Source: an uncultured Caldilineales bacterium (GTDB lineage: Bacteria; Chloroflexota; Anaerolineae; J102). Taken from it: 64,000 nucleotides of DNA. Where the stretch lies: assembly GCA_964460135.1 (NCBI GenBank), contig CAYWPZ010000001.1:7469-71468 (forward strand), written 5' to 3'. The notes below the pieces were generated by a model. The model was not told where the DNA came from, did not search any database, and was given only the letters and a program-made list of their open reading frames with translations. Both the position numbers and the translations under genes were made by a program. Shown here piece by piece: positions 51,859 through 57,073 of this stretch (position 1 is its first letter; each line of letters starts with the position of its first letter).

Positions 51859-51927
51859 CTGCCGCCTGCGACCCGCCCCCGCTCCTTGTCTACCGGTTTC
51901 CTTGCCTACTCATCTACATCCACCCCG

Positions 51928-52381
51928 ATGAATGCCATCGAAGTCCAGGCCCTGCGCTGCGTCTACCAGGCCAAGACGGGCATCCTCCGCCGCGCGGCCA
52001 AGGAAGTCGTGGCGGTGGAGGGCGTCAGTTTTGCCGTCGCGCAGGGCGAGTTGCTTGGCTTGCTCGGTCCCAACGGCGCCGGCAAAACGACCACGATCAA
52101 GATGCTGACCACGTTGCTGATCCCGACCAGCGGCGCCGCAACCATCCTCGGCTTTGATCTGGTCAAGCAGGCCGAGAAGGTGCGCCCGCTATCTCCTGGC
52201 CCCCTACTGGGCTGCCCGCGCCCTCCACGCCACCTCCAGCGGCCAGACTTCGCTGGCCGACGCCGATCTCAGTTGGGCCATCCTCAGCGCCCTCAGCCTG
52301 ATCTACCTCGCGCTTTCGCGCTGGCTATTCCTCCGGATGCTTCATAAAGCCCGCGTCGAGGCGACGTTGGGGGCGATGTGA
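51928..52381 (+). pseudogene. Remnant of an ABC transporter: ATPase N-terminal ~87 aa (Walker A) joined out of frame to a permease-like C-terminal TM tail
   Basis: GPNGAGKTT ... ILGFDLVKQAEKVR, then the frame is lost near 52186. The second frame (52154-52381) encodes ..LSWAILSALSLIYLALSRWLF..., typical of a last TM helix. No Q-loop, signature or Walker B is present. Confidence 0.6.
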
Positions 52382-52458
52382 GCGAGATCGAGGTGTGATT
52401 CGTACAACTGTTCGATTTCGAGTATACTTGGGTACATCTTACTTGGGGTCAGAATTCT

Positions 52459-53457
52459 ATGTCTCAAGAGAGCGACCTGCCGTTCGGGAGCGAGTTCTCT
52501 CCCAGCCAAATCGACTTATCCGAAATCCTGGAAATTGTCGAAACGTACTCGGGGGATGTGCAGGCGTTGCAGGACGCGATCCAGGCTCGCTATTTCAGCG
52601 CACACGGCGGTGGAAGCGCCCGCAATCAGAAGACCCTGGCGATGAACTGCCGGCTGGGGATGAAGGCATACGGCATCATCGACGAGACAGCCACGATCAC
52701 AGCCTTTGGACGCAGGCTCTATCGAATCAGAGAGAATGGGCCGGCCTTGTACACCCTTCTGGCCAGACACATCCTGCTGCACTTGAAGGGCATGACGTTG
52801 GTGCAATGCATTCAAGATATGACGGCGGCCGGCGAGGAAGTCAATTTGACGACGCTGCGCCAGGCTTTGGCCGAGCGCGGCATCCACTATCCGGCGGGTG
52901 GCAAACATCCCAGTATGATGCGTTTGTGGCTTGTCAAAGCAGGCGTGTTTGTGGGCGCTCGTTGGCAGGTGGACAACCTGAGATTGAAAGAAGTGCTGGG
53001 CATCAACCCAGCCGACTTCGACACCCTTGCCCCTCTGACAGCCGCACAACGTTGTTTCTTGCTGGCGCTGGCCAATACAGGCCTCAGCACGCCGCAGCCG
53101 GCGAATGAGATTGCCCGGCTCGCTGCGGCAACTTATGGCGTTCGCTTCCCCGAGAAGAGCTTGCCCAAACTCGTGCTCAACGCCCTGGTCGAGGCTGGAT
53201 ACATTACCGCCACGAAGACGACCGAAGGTCGCGGGGCGAAACCCTTCCTGGTGTCACCCACCGAAAAACTGGTCCACGATGTGGTCGAGCCGCTGCTAGA
53301 ACAGATGAAGTCGCAGACGGATATGAAGCTGGTTCAGTTGATGCGCAAACCGCTTGCCGACGTCCTCGCCGAGCTTGACGCCCAAGACCGGTATATCGCT
53401 GGATTGGCGCTCGAAGCTCCTCCATCGTCATGGTCGATCGACGCGACCTCGATCTGA
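52459..53457 (+). CDS. Hypothetical 332-aa protein on the low-GC island; candidate restriction endonuclease or specificity partner of the adjacent methyltransferase
   Basis: ATG at 52459. Local GC is about 55% against a 68% background. It lies directly upstream of, and co-oriented with, the beta-class MTase. No family motif is recognisable by eye. Confidence 0.45.
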   Translation: MSQESDLPFGSEFSPSQIDLSEILEIVETYSGDVQALQDAIQARYFSAHGGGSARNQKTLAMNCRLGMKAYGIIDETATITAFGRRLYRIRENGPALYTLLARHILLHLKGMTLVQCIQDMTAAGEEVNLTTLRQALAERGIHYPAGGKHPSMMRLWLVKAGVFVGARWQVDNLRLKEVLGINPADFDTLAPLTAAQRCFLLALANTGLSTPQPANEIARLAAATYGVRFPEKSLPKLVLNALVEAGYITATKTTEGRGAKPFLVSPTEKLVHDVVEPLLEQMKSQTDMKLVQLMRKPLADVLAELDAQDRYIAGLALEAPPSSWSIDATSI

Positions 53458-53550
53458 TCCGAAACAAGCCAGTGCACATCGTCGACGCGTTCAACCGCGA
53501 AGCAAGTCATGCGATGACTCTCAAGAAGCTGGAAATTTAGCGAGGAAGTC

Positions 53551-54688
53551 ATGAGCGCCGAACACACGTCTACAGCTACCCTTTTCCTCGAAACCAGCCT
53601 CGGAAAAATCTATCAGGGCGATTCACTCCGCTTTCTCGCTGATCTGGAACCTGCCAATGCCGATCTGATCATAACCAGCCCTCCCTTCGGTTTGGTCAGG
53701 AAGAAAGAATATGGCAATGTCGAAGCCAACCAGTATCTAGACTGGTTCAAACCCTTTGCTGCACAATTTCACCGTGTGCTGAAGGAAACGGGCAGTCTTG
53801 TGATCGACATCGGCGGGGCCTGGAATCCGGGAACGCCGACGCGCAGCCTCTATCACTTCAAGCTGCTGATCATGCTTTGTGAGGAATTCGGCTTTCATCT
53901 CGCCCAGGATTTCTACTGGTGGAATCCTTCCAGGCTGCCCACGCCCGCCGAATGGGTGACAGTACGCCACATTCGCGTCAAAGACGCCATTGATACCGTT
54001 TGGTGGCTTTCCAAGACCCCCCTGGCCCAAGGCGAGCAATCGGCGTGTGCTGCAACCCTACAGCAACAGTATGCAAGAACTGCTCAAAAAGGGCTATCGA
54101 GCCAAAAAACGCCCCTCCGGCCACGACATCAGCGATAAATTCGCGGTGGACAACGGCGCTGCTATCCCTCCCAACCTGATCGCCATTCCAAATACCGAGA
54201 GCAACAGCCACTACCTCCGCTATTGTCAGGAACGAGCCATCACACCTCACCCCGCCCGCTACCCTGCCGCCCTGCCCGAATACTTCATTCGTATGCTGAC
54301 CGATAAAGGCGACCTGGTGTTCGATCCATTTGCCGGCAGCTGCGTCACCGGCGAAGTCGGCGAACGGCTTCAGCGACGCTGGTTGTGCGTTGAACTGGTC
54401 GAAGAGTACTTGCTCGGCGCCCGCGGTCGATTCGAACAAACTGGCATTCCCGAACCGGAGATCAAAACCGCAAGCGATGGGGATGACAACTATTATCGCA
54501 TGCCGCACCCTGGCATCCTCTGGAACGGCGCCACGGAGACGCCATTGGCTGCCGATGGCGGCAAGGCGCGGCATTTTTCCGGCGATCCGGCCAGAAGCGG
54601 CAGCCGGACGACGCCAGCACATGCTCCTCCAAGTCGCTCCTCCGCTCCCCTTCTCGACCTGCTTCGAGAGCAAACGTCTGATGCCTGA
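53551..54688 (+). pseudogene. Beta-class N4-cytosine/N6-adenine DNA methyltransferase (SPPF motif IV before FxGxG motif I), interrupted by a +1 frameshift in a C6 homopolymer (54017-54022)
   Basis: Frame 1 (53551-54138) carries IITSPPFG. Frame 2 (53990-54688) carries VFDPFAGSCVTG. Removing one C from gaCCCCCCtgg gives a continuous ..[20 protein letters not shown].. product. ATG is preceded by GAGGAAG. Confidence 0.7.
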
Positions 54689-54718
54689 TCAGTTCACTCA
54701 TCATCTCATCTTGCCCCG

Positions 54719-54768
54719 CCTCTCCGCCTCCCTCCGCATCTTCTTCTCCGGCGCCTGGCTCTCCCACA
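54719..54768. repeat. 50-bp direct repeat, left copy
   Basis: cctctccgccTccctccgcatcttcttctccggcgcctggctctccCaca, 48/50 identical to the copy at 55472-55521. Confidence 0.85.
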
Positions 54769-54798
54769 GACGCGGGTGAGAACGGCAGCGGCGGAGCC

Positions 54799-55116
54799 TC
54801 ATGCTGCCGCAGTGAGCGGCCGAATGCGGAACAATTCATCACTATGGCGCTGTTTGGATTCCCACAGGTCTCTTGCATGTTGCGCATTCAACCAGAATTC
54901 GGGAGAATTTCCGAAGAGGCGCGACAAACGTAGCGCCATCAACGGCGTCATGGAGCGCTCCTCTCTCAACAGTTCGTGAATCGTCTGCCGCGACACGCCC
55001 AGTTCCGCTGCCAGCGCACTGGCCGATAGCCCGTAGTCCGGCATGAAATCCTCGCGCAGCATCGCGCCAGGATGTGTTGGTGGAATTTGACGAGGCTCGT
55101 TATTTGCGAATGACAT
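54799..55116 (-). CDS. higA: HigA-family antitoxin (XRE-type HTH)
   Basis: Sequence ..LSASALAAELGVSRQTIHELLREERSMTPLMALRLSRLFGNSPEFWLNAQ.. ATG at 55116 behind GAGGAGAAAG, 10 nt after the higB stop. Confidence 0.85.
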   Translation of the reverse strand: MSFANNEPRQIPPTHPGAMLREDFMPDYGLSASALAAELGVSRQTIHELLREERSMTPLMALRLSRLFGNSPEFWLNAQHARDLWESKQRHSDELFRIRPLTAAA

Positions 55117-55126
55117 GGCTTTCTCC

Positions 55127-55408
55127 TCAATGATAATCGGTGACTTCGACATCGAAAGCGTCGCCGTCCACGAAACGAAAGCAAATGCGCCACTGATCAT
55201 TGATGGCGATCGACCACTGGCCTTCTCGGTCTCCCTTCAAGGCGTGCAAGCGGTTGCTCGGCGGTACTTTGAGATCATTCAAGTTCTGTGCCAGATCGAT
55301 GTACTCCAGCCTTCGCAGCGCCAGCTTCGCCAAATCTGGCGGCAGCCGCTTTGACTTGCCGCTGACATACAGCCGCTGCGTTTCTCTGTCAGCGAACGTC
55401 TGAATCAT
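55127..55408 (-). CDS. higB: HigB toxin (RelE/ParE superfamily)
   Basis: 93 aa, [14 protein letters not shown]...[21 protein letters not shown]. Toxin-first order as in HigB-HigA. Confidence 0.85.
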
Positions 55409-55471
55409 AGCCGAATGGTAATCCGTCACGTGACACCTGTCAATCCCCTCGCCCACCCTTTCCATGCCCAA

Positions 55472-55521
55472 CCTCTCCGCCCCCCTCCGCATCTTCTTCT
55501 CCGGCGCCTGGCTCTCCTACA
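55472..55521. repeat. 50-bp direct repeat, right copy
   Basis: cctctccgccCccctccgcatcttcttctccggcgcctggctctccTaca, about 100 bp upstream of rtcB. Confidence 0.85.
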
Positions 55522-55621
55522 TCAGCCTGTTTCGCAGGGCGCGGCCGGCTTCGGGCTGTTCAGCTGGTTCGAGACCATCGCCAAGCGAGTGACTTCAGCC
55601 AAGCCAAAAATCGATCAAACT

Positions 55622-57073
55622 ATGGTCGCCCGCAAAGACCTGCGCCAAATCAACCCCTACCTGTACGAGATTGCCTGTGAATTTCGCCAGGATATGCGCG
55701 TCCCCGCCCGCATCTACGCCGACGAAGCCATCTTGCAGGCGGCCCTGCGCGACCAATCCATCGACCAATTGGTCAACACCGCCACCCTGCCCGGCATCGT
55801 CCAATATGCCCTGGCCATGCCCGACATCCACCAGGGCTACGGTTTCTCCATCGGCGGCGTGGTGGCCACCCGCGCCGATGACGGCGTCATCTCGCCCGGC
55901 GGGGTGGGTTATGACATCAATTGCGGCGTCCGGCTGCTGGCCTCGGACATGGAGGAGGGCGAAGTGCGGCCTTACATGGAAGATCTGGCCACCGCCCTCT
56001 CCCAAAAAATCCCCAGCGGCGTCGGCGTCGGGGGCTTCATCCGCCTCAGCGACCAGGAGATGGAGCAAGTGCTGGAAACCGGGGCGCGCTGGACGCTGAA
56101 GCGAGGCATGGCGCGCAAAGAGGACCTCATCCACACCGAAGAAGAAGGCTCGATGCCCGGCGCTCGCGCCGACAAAGTCAGCCGCGAGGCCAAGAAACGC
56201 GGCCGGGATCAACTCGGCACCCTGGGCGCAGGCAATCACTTTGCCGAGATCGATGTCGTCGATGAGATTTTCGACCAGGAACTGGCCCGCGCCTTTGGCC
56301 TCTTCCCCGGCCAGGTCGTGCTGCAAATCCATTGTGGCTCGCGCGGGCTGGGACACCAGGTCTGTACCGATTATGTCAACACCTTCCAGGCCGTCGTCAA
56401 ACACTACGGCATCGTCCTGCCCGACCGCCAGCTGGTGTGCGCGCCGGTGAAATCGGCCGAAGGGCAAGATTACATCGCCGCCATGGCTGCCGCCGCCAAC
56501 TTTGCCTGGGCCAATCGCCAGGCCCTCAGCCACCAGGCCCGGCAGGCATTCGCCGATGTGTTGGCCGGCAAAGTACGCGGCTACGACCTGCGCCTGGTCT
56601 ACGACATCGCCCACAACATGGCCAAGCTGGAGACGCACGAGGTGGAGGGCCGCAACCTGCGGGTCTGCGTCCATCGCAAGGGCGCCACCCGCGCCTTTGG
56701 CCCTGGCAGCCCTGTCCTCCCGCCCGACTATCGCCAGGCCGGGCAGCCGGTGTTTGCGCCGGGCAGCATGGGCACGGCCAGCTATGTGCTGGCTGGCACC
56801 GAAGGCTCGATGCGCCAGACCTTTGGCTCCACCTGCCACGGCGCCGGCCGCCAGATGAGCCGCGCCGCCGCCAAGAAACAGGTGCAGGGCGGCAGGCTGA
56901 AGCACGAACTGGAAGAGGGCGGGGTGGTGGTGCGCGCCGGCAGCCTGGCCGGGCTGGCCGAAGAGGCCCCCATCGCCTACAAGGACGTGAGCCGGGTGGT
57001 GGATGTCGTTCACAACGCCGGCATCGCCCGCAAAGTGGCCCGGCTGCGGCCGATCGGCGTCGTCAAAGGCTGA
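55622..57073 (+). CDS. rtcB: RNA-splicing ligase RtcB
   Basis: N-terminus aligns with archaeal and bacterial RtcB (..[38 protein letters not shown]..). The C-terminus ..[20 protein letters not shown] aligns as well. Confidence 0.92.

Follow-up and report, generated by a model that had tools for sequence, protein, structure and literature searches.

The methyltransferase M.PvuII (PDB 1BOO) belongs to the PvuII type II restriction–modification (R-M) system (CAGCTG) and has the beta-class motif order, in which motif IV (SPPF) precedes motif I. Its partner nuclease, R.PvuII, is 157 aa long. A second group of described systems comprises the phase-variable methyltransferases of phasevarions (type III mod and type I hsd), in which a frameshift lies in a simple repeat within the methyltransferase ORF; these repeats are long, conserved, and length polymorphic. 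For calling such tracts, PhasomeIt applies a cutoff of at least 9 bases for poly-G/C, and G7 was deemed too common to be informative (PMC5953494). With regard to translation, the motif CC[C/U]-[C/U] is prone to +1 frameshifting, with frequencies as high as ~1% in E. coli when it occupies the second codon (PMC4519876). Here, we describe a frameshifted, M.PvuII-like methyltransferase gene and its upstream partner in a 64-kb stretch of DNA, referred to below as the window.

The frameshifted methyltransferase gene

The methyltransferase pseudogene, which is of the beta class, M.PvuII-like, and probably of the N4-cytosine type, occupies positions 53551–54688 on the plus strand and is split between two frames. 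ORF A (53551–54138, plus strand, frame 1, 195 aa) starts with an ATG that has GAGGAAG 5′ of it, encodes the N-terminal half, in which motif IV (SPPF) lies, and ends in 39 out-of-frame codons followed by a stop at 54136–54138. ORF B (53990–54688, frame 2, 232 aa) carries VFDPFAGSCVTG; its homologous part (54023–54688, plus strand, +1 frame) contains the target-recognition region starting at WPKASN, and then motif I (DPFAGS). The two ORFs overlap at 53990–54138. PF01555 (N6_N4_Mtase) was matched separately by each half, both times above the cutoff, with ORF A covering profile positions 2–111 and ORF B covering positions 131–216. Together with the sequence itself, these matches confirmed that motif IV lies in frame 1 and motif I in frame 2, as the earlier note had described.

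Intact proteins align with frame 1 as far as ..WWLSKTP and with frame 2 starting at WPKASN; therefore, the lesion lies inside the C run. The sequence at the lesion is TCCAAGACCCCCCTGGCCC, in which CCCCCC was read directly at exactly 54017–54022 on the plus strand, and positions 54010–54030 read TCCAAGACCCCCCTGGCCCAA. On this comparison, the lesion appears to be the insertion of one C into an ancestral AAG ACC CCC TGG (K-T-P-W). The earlier proposal that deleting one C from the tract yields a continuous protein held: the one-C-deleted reading gave 378 aa and matched PF01555 over positions 2–216 of 221 in a single stretch (E = 1.3e-39), with a score of 136.8 bits against a gathering cutoff of 26.7.

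The repaired protein showed the permuted motif order, with SPPF at residues 43–46 and DPFAGS at residues 258–263, and aligned with M.PvuII (PDB 1BOO_A) over query residues 14–304 and chain residues 11–304 (E = 1.1e-101). It was 65 to 86% identical to thousands of intact homologues of ~370 to 385 aa, several of which were named cytosine-N4-specific methyltransferases by their source. The best homologue scored 754 bits, so the match to intact proteins is far beyond chance. The previously suggested M.PvuII-like character was thus supported by homology, and the enzyme is probably an N4-cytosine (m4C) methyltransferase, an assignment whose two sources are the SPPF motif and the homology to M.PvuII. 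Among 15 aligned homologues, residues W151, W152, S154, P157, W158, P159, K160, A161, N163, R164, R165, V166, L167, Q168, P169, Y170, and S171 were invariant. The repaired methyltransferase retained every position that was invariant across this alignment, including the junction P157, W158, P159, K160, and A161.

The window was also searched for other signals. CAGCTG was found 13 times versus 21.8 expected (z = −1.9) and was no outlier among palindromes. GGGCCC (2 observed versus 26.6 expected) and CCCGGG (7 versus 32.8) were the most depleted palindromes tested over the whole window, a depletion that might stem from additional R-M systems that the genome has or once had. A promoter and terminator scan of 52000–55600 returned nothing above shuffled expectation.

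The upstream endonuclease gene and related cassettes

The ORF immediately 5′ of the methyltransferase gene (52459–53457, plus strand, 332 aa) is its cognate restriction endonuclease gene in truncated form, as judged from relatives, including the syntenic relative L091 and a Roseivivax marinus plasmid, in which the gene directly preceding the methyltransferase gene encodes an intact ~456-aa homologue. The earlier note overlooked this partner, which is a restriction endonuclease with its catalytic domain deleted. No Pfam match was obtained for the 332-aa ORF, and a comparison of the endonuclease with PDB sequences and PADLOC gave no match. Homologues of this ORF measure ~456 aa and have a C-terminal PF04471 (Mrr_cat) domain. 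In a tblastn search with the closest homologue (P0121, 458 aa), residues 3–322 aligned to 52459–53418 in frame 1 with 87% identity, and residues 420–458 aligned to 53421–53537 in frame 3 (+3), also with 87% identity. The second alignment marks an out-of-frame C-terminal remnant with the original TAG stop (53421–53540, plus strand). The N-terminal 320 residues were kept, and residues 323–419 were gone; as Mrr_cat spans residues 318–431 of P0121, nearly the entire nuclease domain, of the PD-(D/E)XK type, has been lost. A comparison with L091 showed that 291 bp (L091 2644–2934) correspond to 2 nt in the window, which gives a net internal deletion of 289 bp with its junction at 53418–53420 (plus strand). 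Since 289 bp is not a multiple of 3, the frame of the endonuclease shifts.

The intact cassette consists of two genes, encoding a ~456-aa Mrr_cat endonuclease and a ~370-aa PF01555 methyltransferase, in the same order as in the window. Examples are a Chloroflexota MAG (JAYRVO010000079) and the 18.8-kb R. marinus plasmid (NZ_CP090156.1), where the pair is annotated as a restriction endonuclease and a site-specific DNA-methyltransferase. The hosts include Chloroflexota, Proteobacteria, Acidobacteriota, Planctomycetota, and others, and the protein identity between the window and its cassette relatives was 65 to 86% for the methyltransferase and 67 to 87% for the endonuclease. The cassette is very widespread and evidently mobile, and it is apparently uncharacterized.

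To describe the cassette in relatives, we used the 80 best-scoring of 179 matching loci, a choice that favors intact genes. Among these 80, an intact ~456-aa endonuclease homologue with its catalytic domain, which the window lacks, was immediately 5′ of the methyltransferase gene in 43 genomes from many phyla; 21 loci had no endonuclease, and in up to 13 it was damaged. The methyltransferase gene was uninterrupted in 79 of the same best 80, and none of them (0/80) was shifted at the C-tract site. Loss of the endonuclease with the methyltransferase kept is thus common in the family, which indicates that the usual path is loss of the nuclease first, after which the methyltransferase persists alone; in the window, this orphan methyltransferase has now been hit too.

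Several loci illustrate the different states of the cassette. In L091, 4 bp separate the endonuclease gene from the methyltransferase gene; L004 has an intact methyltransferase gene beside endonuclease fragments only; and in P0002, the first ~125 residues of the endonuclease are fused in frame to the methyltransferase. The closest relative of the methyltransferase (86% amino acid and 89.5% nucleotide identity) is P0001, found at loci L004–L009, which have another genomic context, with NUDIX and DNA ligase genes adjoining and only endonuclease fragments upstream. L004–L009 and P0002 represent independent, recurrent losses of the endonuclease, and these loci also show that the cassette moves between sites. 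Between the window and L091, the R-M genes were 85% identical, and the flanking genes were 93 to 96% identical.

The surroundings of the cassette were compared with L091, where the gene order is ABC ATPase, ABC-2 permease, endonuclease, methyltransferase, ABC-2 permease, NOV_C, and RtcB. Relative to L091, the window has a ~1.3-kb deletion with its junction at 52188–52190 (plus strand), at which an ABC ATPase fragment is fused to an ABC-2 permease tail; the missing part, L091 115–1414, consists of ATPase and permease sequence. The first ~100 codons of the ABC ATPase gene are joined to the permease tail within 51886–52381, and a 153-aa ORF at 51886–52347 matched the ABC_tran profile at positions 2–52 only. 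The transporter operon that received the R-M cassette is also dead. Most of the second permease gene and the entire NOV_C gene are likewise missing from the window. A higBA module (HigB/HigA toxin–antitoxin) is located at 54799–55492 on the minus strand, and a 57-bp direct repeat (93% identical, at 54712–54768 and 55465–55521) lies on either side of it. Each copy matches the 5′ end of the ABC-2 permease gene, which is intact in L091, and this suggests that higBA was inserted into the permease gene with duplication of a target segment. The RtcB gene of L091 (6296–8055) has an intein (PF14890), and that of the window (55415–57073, a 552-aa ORF) is without one. As a whole, the neighborhood is decaying.

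Probable decay of the cassette and alternative explanations

The three explanations offered in the earlier note for the split gene were a phase-variation switch, genuine decay, and a sequencing indel, and the endonuclease deletion decides between them. Genuine decay was well supported, the upstream endonuclease having lost its catalytic domain. Very probably, the locus is an ordinary decaying R-M relic, in which a recent +1 C slippage struck a methyltransferase that had become dispensable after the loss of its nuclease. In this scenario, the relic would derive from a mobile type II R-M cassette in which the endonuclease gene directly preceded the methyltransferase gene. The endonuclease would first have lost its catalytic domain through the 289-bp deletion, and the methyltransferase would then have been freed from the need to protect the chromosome. 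Replication slippage in a C5 run may subsequently have added one base (ACC CCC to ACC CCC C), an insertion that cuts the methyltransferase after residue 157, upstream of the target-recognition region and the AdoMet-binding motif I. Both lesions are observed at exact positions, against intact genes in relatives, and the same C6 is present in other assemblies; the order of events and the slippage mechanism are what we infer, and we place the nuclease loss first because losing the methyltransferase before the nuclease would kill the cell.

The substitution pattern was analyzed for the age of the lesions. The dN/dS of the repaired methyltransferase against three relatives was 0.12 to 0.22, the same range as between intact genes, and the pattern was the same upstream and downstream of the C tract. 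Changes unique to the window lineage comprised 8 nonsynonymous and 14 synonymous substitutions, compared with 3/15 and 6/11 in two intact relatives. For the retained part of the endonuclease, dN/dS was 0.09 to 0.15. These low values indicate that both lesions are recent relative to the 10 to 15% nucleotide divergence from the nearest relatives. A single lesion in an otherwise selected-looking methyltransferase also fits a very recent artifact or a partly expressed gene.

An artifact would mean that the true genome has C5 and an intact methyltransferase and that C6 is a sequencing or assembly indel, which we regard as unlikely. Homopolymers are a classic place for indel errors, the methyltransferase gene is otherwise perfect, and its dN/dS resembles that of live genes. 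However, three other contigs (JGI 3300037501, JGI 3300043177, and Logan SRR12686701) were 100% identical over 1.5 to 11.2 kb, C6 included, although the confirmation they provide may be only partly independent, because one of the JGI metagenomes could have been assembled from the SRR12686701 reads. The same 195-aa truncated product was called on all three, and there is a further record of it from an NCBI contig of 100.9 kb. Furthermore, no intact allele above 86% identity was found in a collection of ~15 billion proteins, and shared break points suggest short-read graph assemblies, which seldom miscount a run of six. The 289-bp endonuclease deletion next door is impossible as a homopolymer artifact, and an inactive system is therefore expected anyway. 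With regard to the break points, the L001–L003 contigs all begin at window position 52794, and two end at 54280/54281; the first place lies in the endonuclease gene and the second in the methyltransferase gene, each within a strongly conserved stretch, and both are likely assembly-graph branch points caused by other members of the R-M family in the same communities. A GC3-based scan of the window for other overlapping frame pairs, intended to reveal homopolymer errors across the assembly, had no discriminating power, as it did not flag the known methyltransferase pair itself.

If the C tract were instead a contingency locus, it would toggle the (orphan) methyltransferase between ON (C5 or C8) and OFF (C6) in a phasevarion-like manner. 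The frameshift does lie exactly within a homopolymer, slippage is reversible in principle, and the remainder of the methyltransferase gene is undamaged. Nevertheless, this reading is very improbable, since C6 is well under the lengths used for calling phase-variable poly-G/C tracts and such runs are frequent here: the window, which is 65% GC, contains 35 G/C runs of at least 6 bases, including 16 C6 and 11 G6. The tract is also not conserved. Among 63 relatives with a readable tract, the C run was 2 in 27, 3 in 25, 4 in 6, and 5 in 5, and the K-T-P-W codons varied synonymously and in frame; moreover, the shift occurred in none of the 80 best-scoring loci mentioned above. All four assemblies of the strain have C6, with no tract-length polymorphism at the assembly level, and no ON allele was found in the ~15-billion-protein collection. 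A pattern scan of JGI metagenome contigs, allowing any 3 to 9 bases at the tract, returned distant relatives only (71–74% nucleotide identity, all in frame) and did not return the strain's own contigs, so it has no bearing on C5/C6 heterogeneity. Finally, the deletion in the partner nuclease is irreversible. The suggested phase-variation switch was therefore left unsupported by a tract that is short, unconserved in relatives, and identical in other assemblies, beside a deleted partner, and the sequencing indel was judged unlikely from the identical C6 on the three other contigs and the neighboring deletion.

The inserted C would also create a CCC-C site, which might permit either a trickle of orphan m4C methyltransferase through a +1 slip or low-frequency ON/OFF reversion by slippage. 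Such residual activity is highly improbable; if it were real, methylation would be heterogeneous in an environmental Chloroflexota population. In its purely translational form, ribosomes would slip +1 on CCC-C and produce a low level of the exact wild-type K-T-P-W-P-K, leaving a weakly expressed orphan methyltransferase, with the P-site tRNA-Pro re-pairing from CCC at 54019–54021 to CCC at 54020–54022. The 0-frame ACC CCC CTG does present the CCC-C slippery motif, and a +1 shift restores the invariant sequence exactly. Stimulatory elements, however, were not seen: in the 0 frame, the codon that follows is CTG, presumably a frequent Leu codon given the GC-rich genome, and no Shine–Dalgarno-like sequence lies ~3 nt upstream. 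For codons inside a gene, a background slippage rate well under 1% is expected (PMC4519876). The frameshift occurs in no relative (0 of the best 80 of 179), which argues against a conserved recoding site, and, given this and the lack of stimulatory context, at most leaky read-through is expected. Compared with prfB-like programmed +1 frameshifting, the locus has the slippery site and lacks the stimulators and the conservation among orthologues. We consider translational rescue extremely improbable. A functional two-subunit split methyltransferase was rejected, because both candidate starts of the second half (TTG 53990 and ATG 54071) have no Shine–Dalgarno sequence and a start at 54071 would drop the invariant WPKASN... 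segment from both fragments.

Significance and comparison with known systems

The locus, best read as a decayed R-M cassette, lacks what defines a functional R-M system, a phase-variable methyltransferase, or programmed frameshifting. It is a dead locus rather than a genetic switch, because the partner endonuclease gene is also without its catalytic domain. For annotation, the two genes should be entered as pseudogenes belonging to a single type II R-M cassette and not as two methyltransferase fragments and a hypothetical protein. The locus has little importance beyond its correct annotation, and it cleanly illustrates how R-M systems are expected to decay, losing the nuclease before the methyltransferase. 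When a homopolymer frameshift is found in a methyltransferase, a call of phase variation should wait until one has checked what state the partner gene is in and whether the tract is conserved. The specificity of the cassette might interest enzyme hunters, for whom an intact relative is the copy to study.

Compared with the described systems, the methyltransferase of the window shares with M.PvuII the beta-class order of motif IV (SPPF) before motif I, and the likeness spans the central target-recognition region; unlike M.PvuII, its gene is frameshifted, whereas a functional type II system has an uninterrupted methyltransferase ORF. The partner nuclease of the cassette is of the ~456-aa Mrr_cat type and is unrelated to R.PvuII. 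In contrast to the PvuII system, no controller (C) protein gene was seen adjacent, and the genes are ordered endonuclease to methyltransferase on one strand. The resemblance to phase-variable methyltransferases lies in the position of the frameshift, which is likewise in a simple repeat within the methyltransferase ORF, but the tract of the window is a C6 run that is unconserved and nonpolymorphic among four assemblies. The closest counterparts remain the intact two-gene cassettes of other bacteria, from which the copy in the window differs in that both of its genes are inactivated.
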